DNA of 64,000 nt from an uncultured Candidatus Saccharibacteria bacterium. Lineage in GTDB: Bacteria; Patescibacteriota; Minisyncoccia; Phycocordibacterales; DATDWN01. The stretch covers positions 42,514 to 106,513 of the forward strand of contig CAZQVT010000001.1 in the NCBI GenBank assembly GCA_964596875.1, given 5' to 3'. The notes under the pieces are model-generated. The model saw only the letters and a program-made list of their open reading frames with translations. It made no database searches and was not told the origin of the DNA. Shown here one piece after another: positions 4,794-61,968 of the stretch. The number at the start of each line of letters is the position of its first letter. Position 1 is the stretch's first letter. The translations under genes and the position numbers were made by a program.

Positions 4794-5798
4794 CTAATCC
4801 AACTTTTTTAGTTTGTATTCTGCTGGGGCATTGTTTAGATATTCCTCCAATTTTTCTCGAGTAAGGAGTCCCTTTTGCGCGCCGACTTGTTGTACAACTG
4901 ACATTGAGTTTATTGGTGCCCATGAAAGTGCCTCATGAAGAGTTTTACCTAGTATTAGTGCGGACACAACAGTAGAAGCAAAAGCATCTCCGGCCCCAGT
5001 TGCTTCACTAGGTGTGTGTGGGTATACAGGCATAAAGTAAGCCTCGTTTGTAGCTGGGTCGTATGAATATGCTCCTTCAAAACCGTCAGTCATTACAACT
5101 TTTTTCGGTCCAAGGTTTGCTAGACCTTTCATCAACACTTTTACATCTCGACTTGTTTCTCCAAGTATTCTCTGTGCTTCTTCTACGTTACAGAAAAATA
5201 TTTCCGTGCTTTTATATATTCTATCAAGAACCTCTTTGCCCATTTTCATTTGGAAAGTTCCAGGTTGGAAAGCAAGTTTAGTTTCAGGATGCTTTTCAAC
5301 AAAATCTACGATTTGCATTTGGAAATCTATAGTGTTATCTGCGAGAGAAGTAAGATAGATCCACTTTGGAGCAGTGTCCATTTTGAAATCGTACTTGTAG
5401 TGCTCGTGCTTTACTAAAATAGTTCGGTTTGCTTCGTACCATAGTACATAGTGATAGTTTGTTTTGTTATCAGGGTCTACGTGCATATATGTAGTATCCA
5501 CGCCGTCTTTTTGAAGTGAAGCAAGACAGTCTTCACCATCTCTGTCTTTTCCTACATACGAGTATAGTGCTGAGTGTAGTCCAAGTCGTGATGCAGACAC
5601 GGCTGCGTTAGCACTGTTTCCAACCGCATAACATATCTCTACTGATTCAAAAGGAACCTTGTCTCCATATCGAACACACAACTCACACTCCTCGTCGTTT
5701 ATTTTGCAGTGAGTTGCCGCGTCTTTAATTTTAATAAAAGCATCTACAACTGTATCTCCTACGGCTAGTAAATCTACCTGTTTATTTTCTGTATTCAT
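4794..5798 (-). CDS. PfkB/ribokinase-family carbohydrate kinase
   Basis: N-terminal LLAVGDTVVD and C-terminal GAGDAFAS motif of ribokinase-like kinases; 334 aa. Confidence 0.7.
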   Translation of the reverse strand: MNTENKQVDLLAVGDTVVDAFIKIKDAATHCKINDEECELCVRYGDKVPFESVEICYAVGNSANAAVSASRLGLHSALYSYVGKDRDGEDCLASLQKDGVDTTYMHVDPDNKTNYHYVLWYEANRTILVKHEHYKYDFKMDTAPKWIYLTSLADNTIDFQMQIVDFVEKHPETKLAFQPGTFQMKMGKEVLDRIYKSTEIFFCNVEEAQRILGETSRDVKVLMKGLANLGPKKVVMTDGFEGAYSYDPATNEAYFMPVYPHTPSEATGAGDAFASTVVSALILGKTLHEALSWAPINSMSVVQQVGAQKGLLTREKLEEYLNNAPAEYKLKKLD

Positions 5799-5845
5799 AT
5801 GGAAAAGTATACCACAGGGAAAGTCCCCTATGGTATACTTTTGTT

Positions 5846-6712
5846 ATGAAAACATTAAAACAAACAGTACTCGAAGCACGAGAGAAAAAGGTTGCAGTCG
5901 GACATTTTAACATTTCTAACTTAGAGGCTTTGTGGGGGATTTTCAAGGCAGCACAAAGTCTAAACGTTCCAGTAATTATCGGAGTTTCAGAAGGCGAAAG
6001 AGATTTTATTGGAGTAAAACAAGTTGTGGCACTGGTGAAAAGTATTCGTGAGGAATACGACTATCCTATATATCTAAATGCTGATCATACTTATTCTTTT
6101 GATAAAGTTAAAGAAGCCATAGATGCTGGTTTTGATTCTGTTATTGTAGACGGCGCAAAACTTTCTTTTGAAGAAAATGTAAAAATGACAAAACAGTGCG
6201 TGGAGTATGCGCGCGCTTGTGGTAGAGAAGTTTTGGTAGAAGCAGAACTTGGTTACATCGGTCAGTCATCAAAAGTTTTAGATGAAATCCCGGAAGGTGT
6301 AATGCTCGACGAAACATCTCTTACAGATCCAGCAAAAGCAAAAGAGTTTGTAGATGCTACAGGTATAGATATGCTCGCTCCTGCAGTAGGGAACTTTCAC
6401 GGCATGCTTCGCTCTGGTGTTGACCCGAAACTAAATATAGAAAGAGTAAAACAAATCGCCGACATAACAGGGATTCCTCTAGTTCTTCATGGTGGTTCAG
6501 GAAACTCTGGAGATGACTTCAAACAGTCTATTGCAAATGGTATCGCTATAGTTCATATAAATACAGAAATTCGTTTAGCATTTAGAGATGGAGTGAAAAA
6601 GTTTCTACAGGAAAACCCAGACGAAGTTGCACCTTACAAATTCCTAAAACCAGGAATGCAGGCAGTACAGGAAGTGGTAACAAATAAGTTGCGACAGTTC
6701 AATAATTTGTAG
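5846..6712 (+). CDS. fba: class II fructose-bisphosphate aldolase
   Basis: VAVGHFNISNLE...LHGGSG...class II FBA/tagatose-bisphosphate aldolase signature; 288 aa. Confidence 0.85.
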   Translation: MKTLKQTVLEAREKKVAVGHFNISNLEALWGIFKAAQSLNVPVIIGVSEGERDFIGVKQVVALVKSIREEYDYPIYLNADHTYSFDKVKEAIDAGFDSVIVDGAKLSFEENVKMTKQCVEYARACGREVLVEAELGYIGQSSKVLDEIPEGVMLDETSLTDPAKAKEFVDATGIDMLAPAVGNFHGMLRSGVDPKLNIERVKQIADITGIPLVLHGGSGNSGDDFKQSIANGIAIVHINTEIRLAFRDGVKKFLQENPDEVAPYKFLKPGMQAVQEVVTNKLRQFNNL

Positions 6713-6731
6713 ACCTCATTCGTTAATAATA

Positions 6732-6846
6732 TTTTTCAGACCACTCACTCTCTCCTGCGGAGAGTTCGCTTATCCTCGGCATCCAACCGTCAAGAACGGG
6801 GTGCCTTGACGGAGCCAAGCTTGGAAGTCTGCGGAGTCTGAAAAAT
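6732..6846. repeat. 115-nt intergenic repeat, copy A (TTTTCAGACC...TCCGTCAAG-aacggggtgc-CTTGACGGA...GCGGAGTC); family R1
   Basis: Near-identical core shared with 22527..22641, including the 9-bp-stem hairpin CCGTCAAGAACGGGGTGCCTTGACGG. Flanked by direct repeat CTCATTCGTTA (6717-6727 / 6856-6866). Confidence 0.7.
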
Positions 6847-6896
6847 ATTACTAACTCATTCGTTACTAAACTCATATTTTAAGAGCGGATTTTAAT

Positions 6897-6925
6897 ATTG
6901 ACATATGTAGTATAATGTGCTATAC
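6897..6925 (+). promoter_or_regulatory. sigma-70-type promoter TTGACA-17-TGcTATACT driving micro-island 1
   Basis: ttgacatatgtagtataatgtgctatact; same architecture as promoters of other islands and of housekeeping genes. Confidence 0.55.
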
Positions 6926-6939
6926 TTATACAAGTTAAA

Positions 6940-6987
6940 TTGTTCCAAGAAAGTGCTTATTTTGAGCCATTTCTTGGAACAATTTCG
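6940..6987 (+). promoter_or_regulatory. perfect 15-bp-stem hairpin in the predicted 5' UTR of island gene 7021..7335
   Basis: AATTGTTCCAAGAAA-gtgcttattttgagccat-TTTCTTGGAACAATT, immediately after predicted TSS and before AGGAGG RBS. Confidence 0.5.
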
Positions 6988-7020
6988 TTAACCGTTCCTT
7001 TCACCGCCCTAGGAGGCAGC

Positions 7021-7335
7021 ATGCAGAACTTCATGGTCAACGTCGTCACCTCGTCGGTTCAGTATCCCGTCGAGAATCCGAGGCTCGATCCGATCTTCGA
7101 CATGAACCAGACCATCCTCCTCCAGTTCGGGCCCTGCTCGAAGGCGGAGGGTGACGCTGTCGCGGACCGCATCAACGCATGGGTTCGTGGTGGCGAAGGT
7201 CGTGGTGCGGCTGAAGCCTTCCGTATTCTGGGACTGGATCAGAGAACGAAAGACGTCTGGGCATCCTGCGACGAAATCCCAACCGCGGGCATCTCGGAAC
7301 TCATCAAAAAGTTCCAGGTGGAAATCCCCGTTTGA
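7021..7335 (+). CDS. hypothetical protein, high-GC island gene (104 aa)
   Basis: AGGAGG RBS 7 nt upstream; GC3-rich codons (gtc/acc/tcg/ggc) unlike host; ORF track 6940..7335 extends upstream but ATG 7021 has the RBS. Confidence 0.5.
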   Translation: MQNFMVNVVTSSVQYPVENPRLDPIFDMNQTILLQFGPCSKAEGDAVADRINAWVRGGEGRGAAEAFRILGLDQRTKDVWASCDEIPTAGISELIKKFQVEIPV

Positions 7336-7526
7336 TCCACGTAACGATCCGTCTCTGGCGCGTCAGCCCAGTATCGTCCGAGGAAGTCATATATTCCTCG
7401 GACTTCCTTCAGAGAATTTAATTCTTAATTAAATGTTCTGAAGGAACGAACAGTTCCATCAAAGTAATTAAACTTTTGATTTCTTTGATGGGACAATTCC
7501 GTCCCTGTTCTTTTAGGAGGTTACCG

Positions 7527-7715
7527 ATGAAAGTTTACATCGTCATGCAGCAGGACCCACACGGAGAGGGTTCGCAGATCATGGGGGTGTACTTGGATAA
7601 GGCGAAAGCCGATGCCGAGGCCGCTGCCATGGTTCACACCATTGCCGTGGACGACGAGGGGCAGGATGTGGAGGTGTGCACTGGAGGTGTGGTAGAGCAT
7701 GAGGTAATCGAGTAA
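7527..7715 (+). CDS. hypothetical small acidic protein, high-GC island gene (62 aa)
   Basis: TTTTAGGAGGttaccgATG RBS; GC3-rich codons; MKVYIVMQQDPHGEG... Confidence 0.45.
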   Translation: MKVYIVMQQDPHGEGSQIMGVYLDKAKADAEAAAMVHTIAVDDEGQDVEVCTGGVVEHEVIE

Positions 7716-7911
7716 GGTAAGTCGTCAGTCTCATTAGGTAACTGACGTAAAAGGGAGTTAAGCTACCCGCCTGCCATGGCAAAGTGCTGATGACCTGAAT
7801 CGGGCGCTCGGAGAGATCCAGCGCCTTTTCGTTTGTAAGAAATACTACTAACAAAATTTTGTTGAGCCATAATTTTTATGGAACATCGCGGAGTGAGTGA
7901 ATAGTGAGTGA

Positions 7912-7978
7912 GAAATGACGCGTATCATTTCGCAAGACCTTGAGCACGAAGTAGCGAAAGGTGTACAGAGTCTGTAAG
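7912..7978 (+). repeat. repeat family R2/R3 copy a: hairpin GAAATGAcgcgtaTCATTTC + GCAAGACCTT ... AAGGTGTACAGAGTCTGTAAG
   Basis: hairpin+GCAAGACCTT shared with 33436.., 43550.., 29685..(rc); AAGGTGTAC...CTGTAAG shared with 33505.., 43618.., 60253.. Confidence 0.55.
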
Positions 7979-8077
7979 ACTCGAAGAAAATTTCTAGCGA
8001 GAAATTATTCTGTTTCCAGAAAAGTTATGGCGAGAAAGAAATTTTGTGTCGCAGATTTAGTTTGATACAATTAAGCA

Positions 8078-9771: not shown

Positions 9772-9810
9772 ACTCACCTTACTATTTGTAAGGCTCGTTC
9801 TCAAAATCTC
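9772..9810 (+). repeat. R4 hairpin module CTCACCTTACtattTGTAAGGCTCGTTCTC downstream of FAD oxidoreductase
   Basis: CCTTAC/GTAAGG inverted repeat plus conserved flanks also at 927.., 25286.., 42759.., 46266.. Confidence 0.5.
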
Positions 9811-9894
9811 CAGCGCCTAGCACCTAGGGTAATTTAATTAGTTTTTAGTTTTGGAGGGGTTGATTTTATACAGTATTTAGTCTATACTAGCCGA

Positions 9895-10536
9895 ATGACA
9901 ATTTTAGAAGCTGAAATCAGAGATAAATCAGTAGACAGTGTTGCACTTAGAAACGAGGGCAAAATTCCTGCTGTTTTCTATGGTAAAAAGACAGAATCTA
10001 CTCCTATAACTCTATCTAGAAATGACTTTATTTCTGCGTGGAACAAAGAAGGTGAGTCAGGAGTTGTAACTATTAAAACATCTAAAGGAACTGTAGATAC
10101 TCTTATAAAAGATATAGATATTGACCCAGTATCTGACATGGTGAGACACGTAGATTTTTATGTATTCGAAAAAGGAAAGAAAGTTGAACTAGATGTTCCT
10201 CTAGAATTCGTGGGAGTTTCTCCAGCAGTAAAGGACCTTTCTGGAAACTTAGTTAAGGCTATGCACGAGATCAAGATTTCAGCAGATCCTACAAACATTC
10301 CTCACGAAATCACAGTAGATATTTCTTCACTTGTTGATTTTGATAGTAAAATCGTTGCAGGTGATCTAAAACTTCCTGCAGGAGTTACTCTTATTGAAAA
10401 TGCAGAAGAGGTAGTTGCAGCAGTTGCAAGACAAAAAGAAGAAACAGACGAACCTTCAGCCCCAGTTGATTTGTCTTCAATAGAGGTAGAGAAGAAGGGT
10501 AAGAAAGAGGAAGAAGGAGGAGAATCAGCAGAATAA
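9895..10536 (+). CDS. rplY: 50S ribosomal protein L25/general stress protein Ctc
   Basis: MTILEAEIRDK...LRNEGKIPAVFYGKK is classic bL25; C-terminal E/K-rich tail. Confidence 0.8.
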   Translation: MTILEAEIRDKSVDSVALRNEGKIPAVFYGKKTESTPITLSRNDFISAWNKEGESGVVTIKTSKGTVDTLIKDIDIDPVSDMVRHVDFYVFEKGKKVELDVPLEFVGVSPAVKDLSGNLVKAMHEIKISADPTNIPHEITVDISSLVDFDSKIVAGDLKLPAGVTLIENAEEVVAAVARQKEETDEPSAPVDLSSIEVEKKGKKEEEGGESAE

Positions 10537-25285: not shown

Positions 25286-25320
25286 CGTCACCTTACTACC
25301 TGTAAGGCTTCTCACATTTT
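25286..25320 (+). repeat. R4 hairpin module TCGTCACCTTACtaccTGTAAGGCTTCTCACATTTT downstream of gyrB
   Basis: shares GCGAACTCCT upstream and TCGGATTTCATCTAAAT downstream boxes with copy at 42730-42830. Confidence 0.5.
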
Positions 25321-28883: not shown

Positions 28884-28956
28884 AGCACAACACTAGGCTT
28901 TTCTGCGATACATTGACATAATCCATAAATGGTTTATTGTGTTTTAGGGGGGGCGC

Positions 28957-37286: not shown

Positions 37287-39542
37287 ATGTATCTAAAGTC
37301 TATTGAACTAAATGGTTTCAAATCTTTCGCTAAAAAAAGCGAACTATCTTTCAATACAAAAGTTTCTGCGATAGTTGGCCCAAATGGTTCGGGCAAGTCA
37401 AATGTTGCCGAAGCCTTTCGTTTTGTTTTGGGTGAACAGTCTATAAAAAGTTTGCGTGGTAAAAAAGGTGAGGACCTTATTTTTAATGGAGCAGGTGACC
37501 TGCCTAGAGCAAACAGGGCTTCGGTAAAAGTAGTTTTCGACAACTCCACAAAGTTTTTACCTGTGGACTTTGAAACTGTCACAGTAGAACGTGTGGTGCA
37601 CCGGGATTCTGTAAACGAGTACCTCATAAACGGCTCCCAGGTCAGACTAAAAGACGTTGTAGAACTTTTGGCATCTGCACATATTGGCTCTAGTGGTCAC
37701 CATATTATTTCCCAGGGTGAGGCAGACAGAATACTGAACGTTAGTCCAAAAGAAAGAAAAAATATGATAGAGGATGCGCTCGGCCTAAAAATGTATCAGT
37801 ACAAAAAAATAGAAAGTCAGAAGAAACTTTTGAAAACAAAAGAAAATATTGAAAAAGTAGAATCTCTTCGCAGAGAAATAATGCCTCATATAAAGTTTCT
37901 CAAAAAGCAGGTAGAAAAAGTAGAAAAGGCTATTCAAATGAAAGAGGAGTTGCAGAAAGAGGCTTTAGAGTATTGTAAGCGTGAAGACGACTACATAAAG
38001 AAAACAGAACAAAAACTGACTACAGAAAAGACACCTCTAACTCATAAACAAAAAGAGTTGGATGATGAACTTTCTCATGCAAAAAGTATTCTAGAGAATG
38101 CAAAAAACAAAGACGGCCTGTCTGACAGACTTATAACTTTGGAAAAAGACTTGCACAGAGCCAGAGATGAAAAAGACGAACTTTTCAGAAACTTTGGAAG
38201 ACTAGATGGAGAAATAAACTCTCTGGTAAAGATGGTCAGAAAACAAGAAGAAGTCGCTCGTTCCATGGAACACAAAACTGTGACCCTGGTTTCTGTGGAG
38301 GAGCTTTCTGTAAAAATAGAAGACAAAATAAAAAAAGCAAAAGAGACAAATGATGTTGGGGTTCTAAGTAGCGCTCTGGATGAAGTGTTTGGACTACTTA
38401 CTGACTTTATCGACTACAACAAAGACAAAGTTGAAAACACCCTTATTGCAGACGTGCAAAAAGATATAGAGCATCTACAAGTTTCTAAAAAAGAACTAGA
38501 AGTAAAACTAGAGAAGGTAAACAACGAAGAAAAAGAACTTTCTGCAGAGTACAGTAAACTTAAAAACGAAATAGAAAAAGAGAAAGATTCAAACCGAGAT
38601 GCGGAAAAGGCCGTGTTTAGAATCATGGCAGAGTCTGGCGAGATACGTTCAAAACTTCATGACATTGCTTTGCACGAGGAAAACCTGAAACTAGTGAAGG
38701 AGGATTTTAAAAGAGAACTTACGGAACTTGGGGTTCTTTTGGGCACACATGTTTTGCAGTTTGGAAACGTAGAGATAGAGAACCTAGACGAAGACAGACA
38801 TTTGCAGGAAGAAAGAAGAAAAAGAATAGAAAAAATAAAAATACGACTAGAGGACTCTGGAGGAGTGCTTGGTACAGAGATACTAAAAGAATACACAGAT
38901 GCCACAGAGCGTGATGCATTTTTGGAAAAAGAACTAGCAGATCTAGAAAACTCGGCTACATCTCTGGGAGTACTCATAAGTGACTTGGATGTAAAACTTG
39001 GTACAGAGTTTAAAAATGGTGTAGAAAAAATCAACAACCAGTTCAAGGAATACTTTGCGATGATGTTTGGTGGAGGTGAAGCAAAACTAGAAGTAGCGGT
39101 TCCAGTAAAAAAGAAAAAAGATACAGATATTGTTTTGGAAGATAGTGAAGGCGAAGAGAATTATGAAGCAGAGGAAACAGAAAGTAGTGAGGGTATAGAC
39201 ATAGAAGTTTCTTTGCCAAAGAAAAAAGTTCGAGGACTTATGATGCTTTCTGGTGGTGAAAGAGCACTGACTTCTATTGCACTTTTGTTTGCTATTTCTC
39301 AGGTAAACCCACCACCGTTTATTATTCTAGACGAAACAGACGCAGCGCTGGATGAAGCAAACTCTAAAAAGTATGCAGATATGATAGAGAATCTTTCGAA
39401 GTATTCTCAGCTTATTGTGATAACTCATAACAGAGAAACAATGTCGCGTGCAGGAATACTTTACGGAGTGACTATGGGTGCGGGCGGGGGGTCAAAACTA
39501 CTTAGTGTTGCCTTTGAGGATGCCGTTGCCGTAGCAAAGTAA
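37287..39542 (+). CDS. smc: chromosome partition protein SMC (short form, ~751 aa)
   Basis: MYLKSIELNGFKSFAKK...GPNGSGKSN Walker A, long coiled coils, C-terminal LSGGERALTSIALLFAI signature + Walker B ILDETDAALD. Confidence 0.8.
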   Translation: MYLKSIELNGFKSFAKKSELSFNTKVSAIVGPNGSGKSNVAEAFRFVLGEQSIKSLRGKKGEDLIFNGAGDLPRANRASVKVVFDNSTKFLPVDFETVTVERVVHRDSVNEYLINGSQVRLKDVVELLASAHIGSSGHHIISQGEADRILNVSPKERKNMIEDALGLKMYQYKKIESQKKLLKTKENIEKVESLRREIMPHIKFLKKQVEKVEKAIQMKEELQKEALEYCKREDDYIKKTEQKLTTEKTPLTHKQKELDDELSHAKSILENAKNKDGLSDRLITLEKDLHRARDEKDELFRNFGRLDGEINSLVKMVRKQEEVARSMEHKTVTLVSVEELSVKIEDKIKKAKETNDVGVLSSALDEVFGLLTDFIDYNKDKVENTLIADVQKDIEHLQVSKKELEVKLEKVNNEEKELSAEYSKLKNEIEKEKDSNRDAEKAVFRIMAESGEIRSKLHDIALHEENLKLVKEDFKRELTELGVLLGTHVLQFGNVEIENLDEDRHLQEERRKRIEKIKIRLEDSGGVLGTEILKEYTDATERDAFLEKELADLENSATSLGVLISDLDVKLGTEFKNGVEKINNQFKEYFAMMFGGGEAKLEVAVPVKKKKDTDIVLEDSEGEENYEAEETESSEGIDIEVSLPKKKVRGLMMLSGGERALTSIALLFAISQVNPPPFIILDETDAALDEANSKKYADMIENLSKYSQLIVITHNRETMSRAGILYGVTMGAGGGSKLLSVAFEDAVAVAK

Positions 39543-39561
39543 AAAGTTTTATAATTTTGAG

Positions 39562-39598
39562 TTGCAAAAAGGGCGGTCGCTGTTGCGCCGCCCTTCTG
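39562..39598 (-). terminator. rho-independent terminator (minus strand) for island gene 39619..39864
   Basis: rc GAAGGGCGGCGCAACAGCGACCGCCCTTTTTGCAAC. Confidence 0.6.
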
Positions 39599-39618
39599 GC
39601 TGTGTGAGCTCGCCACGT

Positions 39619-39864
39619 TCAGTGGGCGAGTGACAGTCGGAAGATCCGAACGGGGAAGAGCATCGGCTCGGTGTCACTTCTCATGACTGCCGGGCCGAAG
39701 GGTGTTCTTGAGATGACGACGCTATCGCCACACTGATCTCGCACGACTGCGCGTACGAACAGGCATCTGTCCGCCCCACAGACGATCTCGACCGCTCCGA
39801 AGGGGTGAATCTGATTGACTACATCCCCCGGTGACAGTGTTACCGCTCCTTCGGGCATGCTCAC
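39619..39864 (-). CDS. hypothetical protein, high-GC island gene (81 aa; GTG start)
   Basis: TTGGAGGcccaatGTG RBS; GC3-rich; TTGCAA-17-TGcATAAT promoter at 39870-39905 (minus). Confidence 0.4.
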   Translation of the reverse strand: MSMPEGAVTLSPGDVVNQIHPFGAVEIVCGADRCLFVRAVVRDQCGDSVVISRTPFGPAVMRSDTEPMLFPVRIFRLSLAH

Positions 39865-39916
39865 ATTGGGCCTCCAACGAAGTATTATGCAATAGTATCA
39901 AATATATTGCAAGTAA

Positions 39917-41854
39917 CTATTTATCTTCAGAAACTATCGCGTAATCCAGAACTCTCTTTTCCATGTCTGCACCAACAACTTTGAATTTTATTTTGTCACC
40001 GAGTGTAAACTTCTTGCCAGTCTTTTCGCCTTTTATTGTGTAGTTCTTTTCATCTAGAGTATAGAAGTCGTCACCTAGGTCTCGGATTTTTATCATTCCT
40101 TCACATTTTGTATCTACTTCTTCTATATATATGCCCCACTCGACAACACCTGTTATAGAACCTTCAAACTCTTCGCCTATGTGGTTTAGCATGTACTCAA
40201 CTTGTTTGTATTTTATACTTGCTCTTTCTGCTTCGGATGCTTTTTTCTCCAGTTCAGAAGATGCCAAACAGATTCTTTCAAACTTTGTGTATTCATCTAC
40301 TTCTATTTTTCCACCCTTTAGTTCTCGTTCTAGAAAACGGTGTACCAAAACATCTGGGTATCTACGGATAGGGGAAGTAAAGTGTGTGTAGTAAGCAAAT
40401 GCTAGTGAAAAGTGCCCAATATTTTTTGTAGAGTATGTTGCTTTTGCCATACTTCGGATAACCGCTGTGTTTATGAGTTCCTCGTTTGGAGTTCCTTTTA
40501 CTTCTGCCAAAAGTTTATTTAGGTCACGAGAAGTTACTGCACCTTCGTTGTTGTTTAGTTCAAAACCCATCGCTTTTAGAAATATTGCTAGGTTTTGTAT
40601 GCGGTCTTTGTCTGGAGTAGGGTGGATACGATACACAGACTGTGAACCTTTTTTCTTTATGTCCTGAGTTTGTGACATGAAAATATGTTTTGCTACAGCA
40701 CGGTTTGCAAGCAGCATGTATTCCTCTACGAGCTTGTGTGTATCAAGTCTGCTTTTCTTGTAAACACTTATTGGTTTACCTTTTTCATCCAAAACAAACT
40801 TTACTTCTTCGGTTTCAAAAACCATTGCGCCGTTTGCAGTTTTCTTCTTTTCAAGTTTTTTTGCAATTTCGTTTAGTTTGCGAAGTTCAGGCTGGTATGG
40901 TCCGTCCTGTTTTCCAAGTATCACATCGTTTGCGTCTTCGTATGTAAATCTTTTGTTGCTGTGTATCACAGTTCTACCAAACCACTCTTCTAGAACTTCT
41001 CCACTTCCATTTAGTTTAAACACTGCAGAGAAAGTAAACTTGTCTTCGTTCGGGTTTAGGGAACATAGGTCATTTGAAAGTATTTCAGGAAGCATTGGAA
41101 TAGTTCGGTCTACGAGGTAAACAGAGAGTCCTCTTTTTTCTGACTCTCGGTCTAGTTCTGTTCCTGGTGTTACAAAGTGCGACACATCCGCGATGTGAAC
41201 GCCTATCTCGAAAGTATCGTTTCCAAGGTCTACAAAAGATATAGCATCGTCAAAGTCTTTGGCATCAAAAGGGTCGATAGTCATGGTAGTGACGTCTCGC
41301 ATGTCCCGTCTGTTTTTTATCTCATCCTCAAATCCGTTTTTGTATTCTCGCTTTATTTTCTCTGCTTCTTGTTCAACAGCAGGAGGGAACTCGATTCTAA
41401 AACCTTTTTCCAAAACGATTGCTTCCATTTCGGTATTGTTTTCACCTTTTTGACCGATAATTTTCAAAACTTCTCCGGTAAGTGTGTCCCAGTCTACTAT
41501 TTTTACGAGAACTTTTTCGTTGTCATCTACTTTTGTAGTTTCTGGTAGGAAAATATCTACATATAGTCTTTGGTCGTCAGGCATTACAAAAGTCTTGCCG
41601 TCTTTTCTTTTTACGACACCAACAAACTCTTCTTTTGCGCGTTGTATAACTTTTACAACCTTACCTTGAACACGATTTTTGATTTTCTCACCAGTTAGTT
41701 CTATTTCTACCGTGTCGCCGTGCAGTGCTCGGTTCACATCTTTTGGTTGGATTTCAATATTGTTCTCGCGGTTCTTTTCTTCTGGGTTAGGATCGAAAAA
41801 ACCAACACCTTTTGTGTTTATGCTGATCGGTCCTATTAAGGAGTCCTTTTTCAT
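39917..41854 (-). CDS. rnr: ribonuclease R (RNB family 3'-5' exoribonuclease with C-terminal S1 domain)
   Basis: RRDMRDVTTMTIDPFDAKDFDDAISF RNB motif, N-terminal cold-shock/OB domains, C-terminal S1; 645 aa. Confidence 0.8.
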   Translation of the reverse strand: MKKDSLIGPISINTKGVGFFDPNPEEKNRENNIEIQPKDVNRALHGDTVEIELTGEKIKNRVQGKVVKVIQRAKEEFVGVVKRKDGKTFVMPDDQRLYVDIFLPETTKVDDNEKVLVKIVDWDTLTGEVLKIIGQKGENNTEMEAIVLEKGFRIEFPPAVEQEAEKIKREYKNGFEDEIKNRRDMRDVTTMTIDPFDAKDFDDAISFVDLGNDTFEIGVHIADVSHFVTPGTELDRESEKRGLSVYLVDRTIPMLPEILSNDLCSLNPNEDKFTFSAVFKLNGSGEVLEEWFGRTVIHSNKRFTYEDANDVILGKQDGPYQPELRKLNEIAKKLEKKKTANGAMVFETEEVKFVLDEKGKPISVYKKSRLDTHKLVEEYMLLANRAVAKHIFMSQTQDIKKKGSQSVYRIHPTPDKDRIQNLAIFLKAMGFELNNNEGAVTSRDLNKLLAEVKGTPNEELINTAVIRSMAKATYSTKNIGHFSLAFAYYTHFTSPIRRYPDVLVHRFLERELKGGKIEVDEYTKFERICLASSELEKKASEAERASIKYKQVEYMLNHIGEEFEGSITGVVEWGIYIEEVDTKCEGMIKIRDLGDDFYTLDEKNYTIKGEKTGKKFTLGDKIKFKVVGADMEKRVLDYAIVSEDK

Positions 41855-42878: not shown

Positions 42879-43529
42879 ATGAATTTCCATATAATCAGTT
42901 TGTTCCCAAACGCCTTTGACTCATACCTAAATGAGTCTATTATTTCGCGGGCGATAGAAGACAAGAAAATAAAAGTTTCATTCTATAACCCTAGGGACTT
43001 TTCTGACGACAAATGGAAAAGAGTAGACCAGAAACCATACAGTGGAGGACCAGGCATGGTTATCCAAGCATTGCCAACTATAAAAGCGATAGCAAAATCT
43101 ATTTCTAAAATAAAAAATAAAAAAGCGAAAATAAAAATCGTTTGGTTTACTCCTGGAGGAAAACAGTTCGATACCGCGTATGCAAAAAAGGTTTCTAAAA
43201 CATATACAGATATTATTTTTGTGTGTGGTAGATACGAGGGGATAGATAGTCGAGTGAAAAAAGTTTTTAAGGTGGATGAAGTTTCTGTTGGCCCTTTTGT
43301 TTTAACTGGTGGGGAGTTGCCGGCTATGATTATGCTCGACTGCGTTGCGCGACAAGTGAAGGGGGTATTGGGGAACTTTGATTCGCTAGAAGAGTCTAGG
43401 GTATCGAGCCATGATGTGTATACTCGTCCAGAAGTTTTTGAATACAAAAATAAAAAATACAAAGTACCACGTGTGTTACTTTCAGGTAATCACGCTGAAA
43501 TTGAAAAGTGGAAGAAGAGTAGATCATAA
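42879..43529 (+). CDS. trmD: tRNA (guanine37-N1)-methyltransferase
   Basis: MNFHIISLFPNAFDSYLNESIISRA, SPOUT knot motifs; 216 aa. Confidence 0.85.
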   Translation: MNFHIISLFPNAFDSYLNESIISRAIEDKKIKVSFYNPRDFSDDKWKRVDQKPYSGGPGMVIQALPTIKAIAKSISKIKNKKAKIKIVWFTPGGKQFDTAYAKKVSKTYTDIIFVCGRYEGIDSRVKKVFKVDEVSVGPFVLTGGELPAMIMLDCVARQVKGVLGNFDSLEESRVSSHDVYTRPEVFEYKNKKYKVPRVLLSGNHAEIEKWKKSRS

Positions 43530-43549
43530 AAAGTTTTGTTTTCCGGTGA

Positions 43550-43639
43550 GAAGTGATGTTATCACTTCGCAAGACCTTGCCAAATTTTTCTAGAACGAAG
43601 TGATTAGAAAAATAGACAAGGTGTACTGTTCCTGTAAGG
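43550..43639 (+). repeat. repeat family R2/R3 copy c: GAAGTGATgttaTCACTTC-GCAAGACCTT ... AAGGTGTACTGTTCCTGTAAGG
   Basis: shared modules with copies a,b,d,e. Confidence 0.6.
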
Positions 43640-43732
43640 AAATCATAAAAAAATAGAGGAGTGGAAACTAGGTAAAGGCAAAAAATAACTCCTACAGAAA
43701 AACCCGCGAGTGCGACAGAGTTTCTCTGCCGC

Positions 43733-43912
43733 CTACGCGGGCTGGAGCTCGTTGACCTTTCTGGTCTTGAGCCGTGCTTTTGCTTGTTTTCTTTTGACCT
43801 CACTCATCATCCTTTCTTGCTGTATCTCTGCGATGATTGCGTCGAGTCTGCCGAGCATTCGTGCTCCCCAGAGTCTTTCGCGGATGATCTGCTCTTTTGC
43901 TTGTCGAGTCAT
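43733..43912 (-). CDS. small highly basic coiled-coil protein, high-GC island gene (59 aa; below ORF-track threshold)
   Basis: AAGGAGGccatATG RBS, TTGACA-17-TATATT promoter 43925-43960 (minus), hairpin terminator 43700-43735; MTRQAKEQIIRERLWGARMLGRLDAIIAEIQQERMMSEVKRKQAKARLKTRKVNELQPA. Confidence 0.45.
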   Translation of the reverse strand: MTRQAKEQIIRERLWGARMLGRLDAIIAEIQQERMMSEVKRKQAKARLKTRKVNELQPA

Positions 43913-44037
43913 ATGGCCTCCTTATCCACCTGCAATTAATATACAGTAAATACTGTATATTGTCAAATTTGAGAAAGGCCGCGCTCCTCTCGGTTCGCGG
44001 CCTTGTTCGGGTGGGGGACTTTCTCGTCCCCGCCGGT

Positions 44038-44421
44038 TTACTTCTTTCGCTTCTTCCTCGCTTTCTGCTTGCGCGCACTTCCGATAGTAGTGCTGCTACC
44101 CAGCCACCGTTTGGGACTGAGTTTGGCGAGTTCCATCACGCACATGAAGGCGTAGATGGTGACATCGCCCACATGCTTGAACGAGTCGAGGTCCCAACAC
44201 TTGACCGCCTTGGCCATCGCCCCGACTGTCTTGTACTGGGAGTAGTGTCTCTTCACCACCTTGTTCAGGCGGGTGACGGCGGAGGTGTGTCCGCACTCGA
44301 GCTTCTGGTTCACCTGCCGGCGAGTCAGTTTGAACTCTCCGATGGTTAGAACCACCGCGTTCTGTCTGTCGGCGTAGGCCTTGCTTACCGGATGTCTGAA
44401 ACCCTCACTCTTCCTCGGCAT
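44038..44421 (-). CDS. hypothetical basic protein with KKRKK C-terminus, high-GC island gene (127 aa)
   Basis: CGGAGGGcatcaacgaATG RBS; consensus promoter TTGACA-aatatgttgtatgtgc-TATAAT at 44430-44480 (minus); GC3-rich. Confidence 0.45.
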   Translation of the reverse strand: MPRKSEGFRHPVSKAYADRQNAVVLTIGEFKLTRRQVNQKLECGHTSAVTRLNKVVKRHYSQYKTVGAMAKAVKCWDLDSFKHVGDVTIYAFMCVMELAKLSPKRWLGSSTTIGSARKQKARKKRKK

Positions 44422-44524
44422 TCGTTGATGCCCTCCGATTAGTATTATAGCACATACAACATATTTGTCAAGTATAAAATATAACAAATTGTTTTGAATT
44501 TTTTATATCTGTTACAATGTTTCA

Positions 44525-46265: not shown

Positions 46266-46292
46266 CCTCACCTTACTATCTGTAAGGCTTGT
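46266..46292 (+). repeat. R4 hairpin module CCTCACCTTACtatcTGTAAGGCTTG downstream of helicase
   Basis: CCTTAC/GTAAGG inverted repeat; downstream ATACGCGACCTT box also at 34885. Confidence 0.5.
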
Positions 46293-47342: not shown

Positions 47343-47425
47343 TAAAATATATAAAGTGTGTTATTGTAACTCTCGCTACTTTTACGACATAAAGTCGATA
47401 CTTGCTAGCATGGAGTTCTTTCTCA

Positions 47426-48295
47426 ATGATGAAGCGTCTGCTCCTCCCCGTCTTCACCGCGATCCTCATGATGCCGTCGCTCGGCTTCGCTCAGGGCACC
47501 GTCGTCTTCTCGAACCTGCCGTCGCCCACGCCGGGCAACATCCCGTCCTTGGGCTACCAGTGCTGCTCGGTCTCCGAGTTCGGCGACCGCGTGCACCTCG
47601 AGGCCGACACGCCCCGGCGTGCCAGCAGCGCGACGGTTCTGATGTCGTCGTGGTCGCTCCACTCGAACTACCCGACGATGTCCGCGGCCGGCTACAAGCA
47701 CCCGATCACGCTCGCGGTCTACGCGAACGACGCGGCGGCCCTGGCGCATTCGCCCTTGGCAACCGTGACCCAGATGATGGACATCCCGTGGCGGCCCGAG
47801 GCCGACCCGACCTGTCCCGGCGGGACGGCATGGCGCGCAACGAACGGCCAGTGCTACAACGGCATGGCCTTCACGCTCACGTTCGACCTGCGCAGTCTGA
47901 ACCTCACGCTCCCGGACGAGTTCGTCTGGGGTGTGGCGTACAACACGCAGACCTGGGGCTACAACCCGCTCGGCGTCGCCGGCCCGTACGAGTCGCTCAA
48001 CGTCGGCACGACCGCTTCGGCGCCGTCAGTCGGCGTCGATGTGGATCCGGACGTGGCGTACGTCAACTACGCCGTGGCGGGGTTCTACTCCGACCTCGGC
48101 GCGGGTGGCACGAACACCTTCCGCGCCGATACGGCATGGACGGGATTCGCTCCCTCGGCGGAGTTCACCACGGTTGCCGTTCCGGCGACCACCGGTGAGT
48201 GCAAGAACGGAGCCTGGCAGAACCTGGTCCGGCGTGACTTCACGCCGTTCAAGAACCAGGGAGCCTGCGTCTCCTACGTCAACACCGGCAAGTAG
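47426..48295 (+). CDS. secreted hypothetical protein, very high-GC island gene (~65% GC, 289 aa)
   Basis: signal peptide MMKRLLLPVFTAILMMPSLGFAQG; extreme GC3 bias (ccg/ggc/acg/gtc); followed by CGGCGGTCCtcagGGACCGCCGCTTTTTTAT terminator. Confidence 0.5.
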   Translation: MMKRLLLPVFTAILMMPSLGFAQGTVVFSNLPSPTPGNIPSLGYQCCSVSEFGDRVHLEADTPRRASSATVLMSSWSLHSNYPTMSAAGYKHPITLAVYANDAAALAHSPLATVTQMMDIPWRPEADPTCPGGTAWRATNGQCYNGMAFTLTFDLRSLNLTLPDEFVWGVAYNTQTWGYNPLGVAGPYESLNVGTTASAPSVGVDVDPDVAYVNYAVAGFYSDLGAGGTNTFRADTAWTGFAPSAEFTTVAVPATTGECKNGAWQNLVRRDFTPFKNQGACVSYVNTGK

Positions 48296-48321
48296 CCGGC
48301 AACAACACCAGTCATCGGGAA

Positions 48322-48357
48322 GATGTCCGGCGGTCCTCAGGGACCGCCGCTTTTTTA
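48322..48357 (+). terminator. rho-independent terminator
   Basis: GTCCGGCGGTCCTCAGGGACCGCCGCTTTTTTATAAA. Confidence 0.7.
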
Positions 48358-48401
48358 TAAAATAGGAAATGAATTTGTGTTGTATTTATTATATAGAACC
48401 C

Positions 48402-53838: not shown

Positions 53839-54453
53839 ATGAAAATTGAAAAGAGAAGTATTGCGGAAAATATCTACTTGCTGAGGTTTGAAAATCAGAC
53901 GGAACTTGCCTCTACTTTTTTGCGGTTTCAGGAACACTACGAGTCGCCAGAGTTTCGGGGAAAGTTTTTTACATTAGACGAATACAAAAAATGGTACACA
54001 CAAGCTAGGGGAGACTTTACCTACTATAGCGACTGGTCTGGTTTCAATATTCCTTCACATATCCTAAAGCCTTTTCTGGAAGGAAAGTTTGACCCACTTA
54101 CGGACAAGGAGAAAATTTTCCTAGAATATTTTACCGACGTGCCTCACCCTTTTTATATTATTGGACTTTCGGGGGATACGGATACTGAAAAAACAAAACT
54201 AACTCTAGATCATGAAACAGCGCATGGGATGTACTACACCAAACCAGAATACAGAAAAAAAGTAGATGAGGTTTTGAAAAAATATGACCTTTCAAAAATA
54301 AAAGAATGGCTACGTTCAATGAGCGGTTACCATGAGTCTGTTTTGGACGACGAGTCGCATGCCTATACCCTTTTTGGTTTTGAAAAGATAATAGAAAAAA
54401 TCCCCGAAGGTATGAAGGAGGAACTAGACGCCATTTTCCAGGAGTTTAAATAG
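53839..54453 (+). CDS. hypothetical protein with HExxH (DHETAHGMYY) putative metallopeptidase motif
   Basis: 204 aa; 1-nt spacing from upstream gene (operon). Confidence 0.3.
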   Translation: MKIEKRSIAENIYLLRFENQTELASTFLRFQEHYESPEFRGKFFTLDEYKKWYTQARGDFTYYSDWSGFNIPSHILKPFLEGKFDPLTDKEKIFLEYFTDVPHPFYIIGLSGDTDTEKTKLTLDHETAHGMYYTKPEYRKKVDEVLKKYDLSKIKEWLRSMSGYHESVLDDESHAYTLFGFEKIIEKIPEGMKEELDAIFQEFK

Positions 54454-54502
54454 GTTTGATTTTGGGGAAGTTTTGTGGGTAAATACTGTGTGGGGAGGTG
54501 GC

Positions 54503-54721
54503 ATGGGGCTCATCGCTAATCTCGTTTCGTGGTCTGAGGCTGTGTCGTGGGTGTGGCAGGTGTTGCCCGGATGGGCACAGAAGTACCTGATCTTCCACAT
54601 CTGCTGTGTGGCGGCGTGTACCATCTGGGTCTGTAACAGCTACCGAACGACTCGCAGGTTGCCTCAGAACTACAAAGTTCTGGGTGACCCGTACAAGGTG
54701 CAGCTTCCGAACGTGAAGTAG
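54503..54721 (+). CDS. small hydrophobic protein, high-GC island gene (72 aa)
   Basis: GGGGAGGtggcATG RBS; ORF track start 54473 lacks RBS; GC-rich versus flanks. Confidence 0.4.
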   Translation: MGLIANLVSWSEAVSWVWQVLPGWAQKYLIFHICCVAACTIWVCNSYRTTRRLPQNYKVLGDPYKVQLPNVK

Positions 54722-55005
54722 TCTCGGCCTCGACTGTTGTTGTGCAAAAGGTGTGTGTCGTTACGGCACCGCCTTTTTGTTATACAAAAATAAAAAGTGA
54801 TATAATCTAGATATGACAAACAGAACAACAAAAAATAGTTTTACTACATTAAACACAGGTAGCAAAAAAAGTGGAAAGAGTATGAGTATAAAACCGAAAA
54901 TGAAAGGTAAGGCACCACGACCAAGCAGAACTAACGGATAAAATAAAAACTTGTGATATAATATTTTGTATAAATTATTAAAATTATTATTTAACTAAAT
55001 AAAAT

Positions 55006-56820: not shown

Positions 56821-56831
56821 AATCTAAAACA

Positions 56832-56864
56832 AAAACCTCGCAGATATGCGAGGTTTTTGTTTGC
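56832..56864. terminator. bidirectional terminator AAAAACCTCGCAGATATGCGAGGTTTTTG
   Basis: perfect stem CCTCGCA/TGCGAGG with A and T runs. Confidence 0.7.
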
Positions 56865-56936
56865 AAAATTTTGTATAAAGAAAAAGCCGGCGGTCCCCAA
56901 CGAATGGGGACCCCGACTTGTGCGCTTGTTGCCGAC

Positions 56937-57143
56937 CTACTGGCTCGCCTCGACCTTGTACTCGGCCGTCAGGCCACGGACGTAGCCGAGCTGGGCCGAG
57001 ACGGCGTTGAGGCGGGGGACGCTCGGGTCCTTCCACGGCTCGTTGCCGAACATCGGCGGCTCGACGGCCCCCATGGCGACGATCGCGGGATCGACGATGG
57101 CGGGCATTCCGAAGTGCAACTGACGGCTCTGCTGCTTTGACAT
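56937..57143 (-). CDS. hypothetical protein, high-GC island gene (68 aa), divergent from lexA promoter
   Basis: AAGGAGtgacaccgcATG RBS; promoter TTGACA-gatgcagtatagtgtgc-TAAGAT at 57165-57195 (minus); hairpin terminator 56880-56915. Confidence 0.45.
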   Translation of the reverse strand: MSKQQSRQLHFGMPAIVDPAIVAMGAVEPPMFGNEPWKDPSVPRLNAVSAQLGYVRGLTAEYKVEASQ

Positions 57144-57257
57144 GCGGTGTCACTCCTTAACGTACATCTTAGCACACTATACTGCATCTGTCAAGTATAA
57201 AATAAAGAGAAAATTTTATGAAATGAAACTTTTCCACAGTTTTATTTTGCTGTTTAT

Positions 57258-60194: not shown

Positions 60195-60206
60195 GAACTA
60201 TTTCCA

Positions 60207-60274
60207 AAAGCTTTTCAGATATTTTATGAGTCTGGCGAAGTAAAATATCGAAAAGGTGTACTGCTCCTGTAAGG
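60207..60274 (+). repeat. repeat family R3 copy d: TTTTCAGATATTTTATGAG...CGAAGTAAAATATCG-AAAAGGTGTACTGCTCCTGTAAGG
   Basis: ~90% identical over ~70 nt to 33467..33526. Confidence 0.6.
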
Positions 60275-60349
60275 AGGGGGCTATGAGCTACTTTTATTAA
60301 ATAATAGGCGATAGTATAATAAAGTACATTATAAATAGTCTTAAAAAAT

Positions 60350-60915: not shown

Positions 60916-61314
60916 ATGATAACAATTCTTATCGCAGCGGTAGCAGCATTTGTTTTCGGAGCATTTTGGTTCACAGTGCTTTTTGGTAAGGAGTGGGCAA
61001 GACTTAACGACTTTAATCCTGCTAGTGACGAAAGAGCAAAACAACTAGGCATGGCAAAGCCTTTGTTTGCAAACTTTCTTTCAAATGTGCTAGTGGCTAC
61101 AGTTTTCTACTACATGATAGACCAGATGTTGGTTTACTCATATGCAGGACTACTACGAGTAGTGTTTATTGTGTGGCTTGGCTTTAGTTTTCCAATATTT
61201 GCCAATGCAGCAATATGGGAAAGAAAGAGCTGGAAACTGGTTGCAATTAACTCTGCGCAAAACCTATTGGCGCTGGCTATTATTTCTGGAATCATTTTCA
61301 AAATGCATTACTAG
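60916..61314 (+). CDS. hypothetical membrane protein (4 TM)
   Basis: 132-aa hydrophobic ORF. Confidence 0.4.
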   Translation: MITILIAAVAAFVFGAFWFTVLFGKEWARLNDFNPASDERAKQLGMAKPLFANFLSNVLVATVFYYMIDQMLVYSYAGLLRVVFIVWLGFSFPIFANAAIWERKSWKLVAINSAQNLLALAIISGIIFKMHY

Positions 61315-61393
61315 GTCCCAGACTATATACTATATATAAGCAGAGCCGCCCCGAAGTCCTTGCTAGGACCTCGGGGCGTGTTCGTTGGGGGAC

Positions 61394-61588
61394 TCAGATC
61401 CTCCCCATCAGGATATCGCGTTGAATGAAGGCGTGCCGCACAGCGGTATTCAGGTTCCTTCCGAAACCGATGACAACTCGGTCCATCTTGTCGGTGAACC
61501 TGAAGTACCACCGCATGTTAGGTCCCTGGGGAGAGTTTCCCAGGTACCCGTAGTCACTCTTGGCTATCACTTCTTTGTTTACAACCAC
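61394..61588 (-). CDS. hypothetical protein, high-GC island gene (64 aa; GTG start)
   Basis: CTGGAGGGAGGtgagGTG RBS; GC-rich versus flanks; promoter-like TTGACT-17-TAGTCT at 61600-61640 (minus). Confidence 0.35.
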   Translation of the reverse strand: MVVNKEVIAKSDYGYLGNSPQGPNMRWYFRFTDKMDRVVIGFGRNLNTAVRHAFIQRDILMGRI

Positions 61589-61968
61589 CTCACCTCCCTC
61601 CAGCGCTCTGTAAAAAAGACTACCTATTTAAGGGCGGGGAGTCAAACCCGACTTTTTGGCCAGAAGTCAAACACAGTGTTAATAGTATGTGGATAAGTTT
61701 GTTGACTTTTGTTGACAAAAGTTAACCCTTGACATATACTCTTAGTTGCTTCACATGATTGAGTTTTGGCAGGGGCAAGATAGAATCTAGGGTTTATTCG
61801 GGGTTTAATAGTTCTATACTATTTTGCAGTTCAATCGCTAACAGTTTAAGAGTTTCAAAATAGCCATCCAATGCGGGGATGGTTCGTTTTGTTTGTCTTA
61901 AACTGAGGGTGACTGAAAGCACCTCGAGGTTTTCTTTTATTAATAGTAGGTGGGGTAAATATTATTTT

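Follow-up and report, generated by a model that had tools for sequence, protein, structure and literature searches.

What is a short, GC-rich stretch with two small minus-strand open reading frames (ORFs) doing between two housekeeping genes of an AT-rich Candidatus Saccharibacteria genome? The stretch was found in a 64,000-nucleotide (nt) section of contig CAZQVT010000001.1 (assembly GCA_964596875.1), which was analysed as a whole and is hereafter called the window. It occupies the gap between trmD and a PIF1-type helicase gene, and its two ORFs are referred to as gene A (127 amino acids, aa) and gene B (59 aa). With moderate confidence, we regard it as a lineage-restricted accessory island of two minus-strand, 'moron-like' cassettes in an insertion hot spot, with A probably encoding a nonspecific binder of double-stranded DNA (dsDNA).

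Both genes are present in the sequence, and the coordinates of all features are collected in Table 1. The genes around the island encode S16, a KH protein, TrmD, the PIF1-type helicase (which carries HTH_40), a PGA_cap protein and RNase R. Guanine-plus-cytosine (GC) content is 52.5% at 43656–44468 against a window mean of 39.0%, in a host of about 39% GC, and GC at third codon positions (GC3) is 0.77 in A and 0.58 in B, compared with 0.23–0.41 in the flanking genes. AT-rich promoters abut the GC-rich coding bodies at sharp boundaries. Six promoter-like sites were counted in the region, against 1.2 ± 1.1 in shuffled sequences, and only five sites matching at least 11 of 12 consensus positions occur on either strand of the whole window, the promoters of A (P1) and B (P2) among them. 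P1 is kept in the related loci L015, L016 and L017. The terminator of A is built from the stems GGGGAC..GUCCCC and GGCCGCG..CGCGGCC, followed by UUUCU; that of B overlaps the last codons of the gene (..QPA and stop) and faces the old trmD stop. Only 4 nt separate the Shine-Dalgarno sequence of B from its ATG, which is at the short end of the range. Each gene is an autonomous transcription unit, consisting of a near-consensus sigma-70 promoter, a Shine-Dalgarno sequence, a small GC-rich ORF and an intrinsic terminator. P2 (43937–43966) is about 80% identical to a promoter-like site at 9860–9889, just upstream of an ORF at 9895, so the island genes appear to use host-type AT-rich promoters.

A preliminary description, made from the letters of the window, had proposed both ORFs, together with their promoters and ribosome-binding sites (RBSs) and a terminator for B; all were recovered where it had placed them, the spacer string that it gave for P1 being 16 nt long, and the hairpins behind both genes have z-scores of about −5. 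Its view of the stretch as a separate GC-rich island lying between trmD and the helicase also held, given the difference in composition and an empty site in relatives. The left edge of the island had been described as abutting a copy of an intergenic repeat (R2/R3), which needs correction, as a relic, 45 nt long, of the 3′ end of an older trmD (43644–43688) intervenes. The cassette hot spot, the autonomy of the two units and the presence of two highly divergent A alleles in the same regulatory frame were not part of that description.

Long chance ORFs are expected in GC-rich DNA, and an antisense ORF of 150 aa (43897–44349, plus strand) does lie opposite A, so the ORFs could in principle be artefacts, either of a chimeric assembly or of a GC-rich non-coding element with chance open frames. 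We consider this extremely improbable, and comparative data already refute it. The same A-B arrangement at the trmD–helicase junction was found in at least nine independent public records from different samples; carriers of the island include GCA_964608465, GCA_020049755, GCA_020047435, GCA_013565675, further contigs from metagenomes and records from Logan, ENA and JGI, and one of the Logan contigs matches the window exactly across the 1.1 kb compared. The ratio of nonsynonymous to synonymous substitution rates (dN/dS, Nei-Gojobori) is 0.15–0.20 for A and 0.26–0.31 for B, compared with 0.02–0.10 for most core genes and 0.08–0.14 for PGA_cap. Length differences in both genes are in frame (B orthologues range from 52 to 60 aa through such indels), and start codons and RBSs are invariant among relatives. 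The antisense frame was considered as a gene and rejected, since it is broken in loci L002 and L015, and it is best read as a by-product of GC-rich sense codons; A, moreover, has about 50 distant protein homologues. Because of the independent recurrence, the dN/dS values, the in-frame indels and the invariant starts and RBSs, the comparisons indicate that A and B are real protein-coding genes under purifying selection, less constrained than core genes. Amino acid identity among three lineages is 67–72% for A and 60–71% for B (down to 46% for B in wider comparisons), against mostly 85–96% for core proteins of the same genomes, with TrmD and PGA_cap at 69–78%; A evolves several-fold faster than core proteins. 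The preliminary description had argued that the 59-codon ORF, missing from the ORF list, was a real gene, and its conservation in frame under purifying selection across independent assemblies bears this out; an ORF under the usual gene-calling cut-offs is here shown to be a real, selected gene. It had also taken a lack of homologues and confinement of the DNA to a single assembly as grounds for abandoning the genes, and homologues were found and several assemblies carry the island.

A metagenome scan with the helicase as query returned 47 loci. At eight loci (L021, L022, L026, L031, L034, L043, L055 and L057), in which the helicase is 67–77% identical to that of the window, the site is empty: trmD and the helicase lie 19–52 nt apart, with nothing in between but the −10 element of the helicase (TGnTAcAAT), which the window retains (44510–44518). 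As the two genes are this close in these more distant relatives, the island is an insertion, and the empty form of the site is presumably ancestral. Other minus-strand cassettes occupy the same junction in L018, L019, L020, L023, L039, L041 and L045. A third cassette, termed C, lies between B and trmD in some relatives, stands alone at the junction in L018 and is absent from the window. A and B were confined to loci whose helicase shares at least 87% identity with that of the window. Taken together, these loci indicate that the trmD–helicase junction is an insertion and recombination hot spot for accessory cassettes.

Synonymous third positions that have stayed the same across the three lineages make up 47% in A, 50% in B and 44–53% in the flanking genes, and synonymous divergence (dS) is 0.7–1.4 in the island and 0.8–1.8 in most flanking genes. 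Because both measures match the flanking genes, the island looks as old as its flanks within a genus-level subclade and seems to have been kept since the common ancestor of that subclade. The trmD relic has nearly the same sequence as the 3′ end of the live gene in L006 and L002. The live trmD of the window stops at 43527–43529, about 115 nt upstream of the relic, with a different C-terminus (NHAEIEKWKKSRS and stop), and a structured repeat of about 100 nt separates this stop from the L006-type relic. Relic and repeat at the left border are another trace of rearrangement at the site. At the next junction downstream, from the helicase to PGA_cap or the following gene, GC-rich inserts were seen in many relatives, among them L006 (1277–2629, with a 441-aa ORF, 57% GC) and L015, L026, L029, L039, L041 and L043 (at about 5700–6900), and this junction may be a second hot spot.

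The proteins encoded by A and B in the window have no usable match in Pfam (0 families at E ≤ 1 for A), PHROGs, NCBIfam or PADLOC. An exhaustive hidden Markov model (HMM) search with A returned 65 proteins at E ≤ 1e-3, of which about 50 are 110–160 aa long and share its layout; the remaining matches were rejected as short-motif false positives, being long RCC1-type repeat proteins (two inspected). In an alignment of 53 sequences, G28, L52, G85 and W106 are near-invariant and most members carry a K/R-rich tail; net charge is +16 to +21 across all alleles of A. Weak Pfam matches were obtained among the 53 relatives to HHH_5 (PF14520; four members), HHH (PF00633; four) and RNA_pol_A_CTD (PF03118; two), the best at 5.9e-5. 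Against the PDB, the family profile matched the helix-hairpin-helix (HhH) repeats of Topoisomerase V (E 5.6e-4) and, at E 0.058, the C-terminal domain of the Thermus RNA polymerase alpha subunit (alpha-CTD), with ComEA also listed. An AlphaFold2 model of A (predicted local distance difference test score, pLDDT, 87.9; predicted template modelling score, pTM, 0.76) runs from a helix through a beta-hairpin and a second helix to a four-helix, (HhH)2-like core and a C-terminal basic helix. In this model two HhH units are packed as in alpha-CTD, with a glycine hairpin, and the best structural matches of the core are alpha-CTDs; Foldseek searches with the whole model against the PDB and BFVD gave nothing significant. 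HhH modules attach to the backbone of DNA and do so without sequence specificity. Fold and profile make A a likely DNA binder, and we conclude that it would act as a generic (HhH)2 binder that carries a polybasic tail, and that it lies outside the alpha-CTD family. The A family appears to be new, comprising about 50 unannotated small (HhH)2 proteins of known fold in ultra-small candidate phyla radiation (CPR) bacteria and in phage-like elements, and it is tractable for a binding assay.

The closer members of the family (E about 1e-16 to 1e-13) are found in ordinary chromosomal contexts, CPR-type in appearance, and likewise stand alone with their own promoter and terminator. More distant members lie on contigs of 61–64% GC, crowded with small unannotated ORFs and holding RecT, tyrosine integrases, repressor/Cro-type helix-turn-helix pairs and some PHROG matches; these contigs look like phage or other mobile-element DNA. 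Since the family is common to CPR-type chromosomes and high-GC phage-like elements, acquisition of A from a mobile element is plausible. A PHROG scan of all 53 members gave one marginal match, tblastn of A and a phage-context relative against 50,697 phage genomes gave none, and no relatives were found in IMG/VR when it was scanned with the A alignment or with P0074. No paralogue of A was found elsewhere in the window.

Two loci, L016 and L062, carry a different protein, A′, at the same junction. Homology to the other island genomes extends over P1, the RBS, the first codons, the basic tail, the terminators, P2 and B, and the regulatory flanks of L016 are 65–84% identical in nucleotide sequence, against just 45–47% for the A coding body. 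A′ is 20–29% identical to A in amino acid sequence and still belongs to the gene A family; each ranks about 31st of 52 in order of nearness to the other, which is weak evidence at such identities. L015 and L062 encode the same B (100% identity) next to A proteins that are 26% identical. The A coding body has been swapped for a distant family member inside the same promoter and terminator, and B alleles reassort independently; because of this swap in a shared frame and the identical B beside divergent A, cassettes are exchanged among related strains. Discordance between trmD and helicase phylogenies was also considered as proof of a recombination breakpoint and rejected as weak, TrmD identities being noisy across all pairs. 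The deep A/A′ dimorphism within one regulatory frame poses a testable population-genetic puzzle.

Gene B was modelled by AlphaFold2 from its single sequence as one helix (pLDDT 91.7), and it is probably a single-helix protein that forms a coiled coil. A word-indexed homologue search with B returned only itself, and a profile of five B orthologues found nothing beyond island-bearing genomes, including among the small ORFs beside phage-context A-like genes; B is, as far as these searches reach, an orphan confined to island-bearing genomes. It had been called extremely basic in the preliminary description. The B of the window does have a net charge of +8; values among its orthologues, however, run from 0 to +8. 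The charge is therefore not conserved, and it is A that is strongly basic. Nucleic-acid binding, which had been proposed for both proteins from their charge, is accordingly retained for A, where it is likely on account of the alpha-CTD-like core and polybasic tail, and dropped for B, a bare helix whose charge falls to 0.

Under the reading that we prefer, A would have been acquired from a mobile element, after which the island would have persisted and recombined within the subclade. In a protein that also has a polybasic C-terminal helix, the (HhH)2 core would contact the DNA backbone or minor groove, and A might coat or occlude DNA. The strong constitutive promoters, the hot-spot location, the fast evolution and the deep allelic dimorphism suggest that the genes take part in conflict with phages or other mobile DNA, a role that we put forward only tentatively, as a possibility that is rather doubtful. 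Several observations weigh against the preferred reading. Fold similarity of A spans only about 55 residues with a modest Z, and the whole-protein Foldseek search was empty; A itself matches no family model in the four collections searched; a mobile origin is based on distant homologues only, the phage genome collection and IMG/VR having yielded no close relative; and dS is near saturation, which makes the age estimate of the island rough. Furthermore, simple ancient acquisition does not account for the composition of A, which has retained its GC3 with no net drift from GC to AT: GC3 is 0.72–0.79 in every lineage, compared with about 0.33 for the flanks, despite about one synonymous substitution per site, and parsimony-polarised synonymous changes number 13 GC>AT and 8 AT>GC, small counts without marked decay.

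Other functions can be proposed for A. It might modulate transcription by mimicking or competing with RNA polymerase alpha-CTD at UP-element-like AT-rich DNA or at activator surfaces, with B as an accessory partner, as the structural matches and the PDB profile search would suggest; on the phage-like contigs, A-family members also lie just downstream of a repressor/Cro-like switch region. The DNA contacts of E. coli alpha-CTD (the '265 determinant') are R265, N268, G296, K298 and S299. However, hhalign aligned only residues 66–103 of A with alpha-CTD 278–314; of these contacts just the hairpin glycine was matched (G85 with G296), and the positions corresponding to K298/S299 are V/T and not conserved. 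Topoisomerase V HhH repeats also outscore alpha-CTD in sequence, so the likeness may be that of the generic (HhH)2 fold, and we consider a transcription modulator unlikely. We see a similarly small chance that the two genes work together as a two-component module, for instance a regulator and its target or a pair of toxin-antitoxin-like type. Every island-bearing genome does have B with A or A′, and an A-like gene adjoins an ORF of 58–76 aa in two of the three phage-like contigs whose neighbours were read. Yet a strong terminator and a separate promoter stand between the genes, and identical B proteins accompany widely divergent A proteins. No toxin, antitoxin or defence domains were detected with Pfam or PADLOC, and the small phage ORFs have no detectable similarity to B. 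A perfect 8-bp palindrome in the P2 spacer of this genome would fit such a module, but it is not conserved in relatives and was rejected as an operator.

That A is a housekeeping nucleoid-associated protein of the lineage, its GC-richness and variability being incidental, would agree with a small, very basic protein of DNA-binding type, a consensus promoter suited to high expression, and family members in ordinary chromosomal contexts of other CPR-type genomes. It is nonetheless absent from relatives with a helicase 67–83% identical, some of which have the empty site; it evolves fast and has been replaced by its remote homologue A′ in sister genomes, and a close relative was found in only 1 of 185,579 species-representative genomes, which makes this explanation quite improbable. 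The composition of A could instead reflect a property of the clade, which would keep GC-rich, strongly promoted, monocistronic mini-cassettes genome-wide in intergenic hot spots with their GC-richness actively maintained, A being a fast-exchanged, allele-dimorphic, DNA-coating factor with an immunity-like part against phages or other DNA entering the cell. Accessory DNA that is GC-richer than the core, as here, is the reverse of what is usually reported. In favour of this proposal are the stable GC3, nine GC-rich islands in the window including that of A and B (13.5% of its length), similar islands in relatives, and a clustering of promoters, 9 of the 22 promoter-like sites with at least 10/12 matches being in or near such islands; we hold it to be improbable. 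Whichever applies, stable GC-rich coding in an AT-rich genome is a puzzle that population genetics can test.

Seven further islands of the window hold short high-GC3 ORFs, several of them equipped with a strong promoter and a terminator of their own. Examples are a promoter at 57194 (minus strand), an ORF at 56937–57143 (GC3 0.93) and a terminator at 56886, and a promoter at 6898 (plus strand), ORFs at 7021–7335 and 7488–7715 and a terminator at 7825. The most GC-rich island of the window (47352–48393, 63–68% GC) carries a plus-strand ORF of 289 aa (47426–48295) with a signal-peptide-like N-terminus, GC3 of 0.91 and its own terminator at about 48350; by its appearance it was acquired recently from a high-GC organism.

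The structured repeat found next to the trmD relic recurs in the window, and several of its copies lie at the edges of GC-rich islands. It begins with a hairpin GUGAGAAGU..ACUUCGC, which is followed by AAGACCUUG, a hairpin of variable sequence, GAAAGGUGUAC and a last hairpin, with compensatory changes in three of the nine pairs of the first hairpin. The repeat has no Rfam match, and could be an unclassified cis-regulatory RNA or a repeat resembling repetitive extragenic palindromes or miniature inverted-repeat transposable elements (REP/MITE-like). Over the island itself, Rfam searches at gathering and E-value thresholds gave only a chance-level small RNA match. Another hairpin motif, short and conserved, CACCTTAC-n5-GTAAGGCT, was noted in intergenic positions at 9773–9798, 25287–25312 and 46267–46292, one of them just downstream of the helicase.

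Table 1. Positions of the island, its signals and related features; coordinates are those of the window unless a locus is named.
Feature	Position	Strand	Description
Accessory island proper	about 43690–44475		genes A and B with their own signals, between trmD stop codon and helicase promoter
Gene A	44038..44421	−	127 aa, net charge +21
Gene B	43733..43912	−	59 aa, predicted single long alpha-helix, residues 3–56
Promoter P1 of A	44444..44471	−	TTGACA, 16-nt spacer, TG-n-TATAAT (TGcTATAAT); 12/12 consensus, extended −10
Shine-Dalgarno of A	44431..44437	−	CGGAGGG, 9 nt before ATG; invariant in relatives
Terminator of A	43972..44031	−	double hairpin, −37.5 kcal/mol, z −4.83; conserved in relatives
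Promoter P2 of B	43938..43966	−	TTGACA-17-TATATT, 11/12; hexamers conserved in relatives
Shine-Dalgarno of B	43917..43923	−	AAGGAGG; invariant in relatives
Terminator of B	43698..43741	−	−31.3 kcal/mol, z −5.02, then UUUUU; conserved
Relic of earlier trmD 3′ end	43644..43688	+	45 nt, reads HKKIEEWKLGKGKK and stop; original left border of insertion site
Helicase −10 element	44510..44518	+	TGTTACAAT; right border of insertion site
Structured intergenic repeat copy (R2/R3)	43545..43641	+	between live trmD stop and relic; outside island proper
Structured repeat copy	33428–33535	+	
Structured repeat copy	7898–7990	+	
Structured repeat copy	29630–29725	−	
Structured repeat copy	60195–60285	+	partial
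Seven further GC-rich islands	6942–7841, 28905–29785, 36621–37265, 39442–39921, 54402–54793, 56821–57216, 61286–61675		48–55% GC
Junction insert	L019	−	gene of about 100 aa
Junction insert	L023	−	73-aa gene
Junction insert	L020	−	97-aa lipoprotein-like gene
Junction insert	L039	−	175-aa hydrophobic protein, membrane-like N-terminus
Junction insert	L041	−	217 aa, HD-like histidine/aspartate motif by eye, GC3 0.71
Junction insert	L045	−	107-aa gene
Third cassette C (68–90 aa, own promoter and terminator)	L002 6110–6379		
Third cassette C	L001 10757–11155 region		
Third cassette C	L015 2798–3070	−	
Third cassette C	L018 3707–3913	−	

Among known systems, the cassettes come close to the 'morons' of HK97/HK022-type phages (defined in PMC3594210). 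Like these, A and B are single genes of deviant GC content with their own promoter and terminator, placed between genes that are adjacent in relatives, and morons spread by horizontal transfer. They differ in being located between housekeeping genes on a chromosome and in being stacked in twos or threes; no phage genes were called within about 10 kb of the island in any relative, so residence in a prophage was not observed. An integron cassette was considered and rejected, as each ORF has its own promoter, the cassette terminators share no attC-like repeat and no integrase was called in the flanks of relatives. A type II toxin-antitoxin pair was likewise rejected: a terminator and a promoter separate the genes, which therefore share no operon, no Pfam or PADLOC domain was found and the alleles reassort.

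At the protein level, A differs from RNA polymerase alpha-CTD ((HhH)2, PF03118) in being a stand-alone protein of 127 aa with an additional N-terminal beta-hairpin and helix and a polybasic tail, in falling below Pfam thresholds and in not conserving the DNA-contact residues other than the glycine. The weak matches of its family profile, to Topoisomerase V repeats and with ComEA listed, connect it to generic HhH binders, a group that also includes RuvA domain II, although only 4 of the 53 members reach weak Pfam HhH scores and the whole architecture is without a match in the PDB or BFVD.

Hot spots of variable and defence genes between conserved core genes are a general concept in bacterial chromosomes. 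As in these, a fixed core pair flanks alternative cargo here, some sites are empty and recombination is evident in the flanks; the junction differs in that its cassettes are tiny and monocistronic, that A, B, A′ and gene C had no match in PADLOC-DB 2.0 (0 families at E ≤ 1), and that no integrase or transposase lies nearby. Rather than a system of a new kind, the locus is an instance of accessory-gene turnover at a chromosomal hot spot. Patescibacteria have already been documented to undergo horizontal transfer and to carry genomic islands (PMC12455944), and the findings overturn no current view. What the trmD–helicase junction offers is a natural landing site at which the turnover of accessory genes in Saccharibacteria can be read straight from metagenomes.

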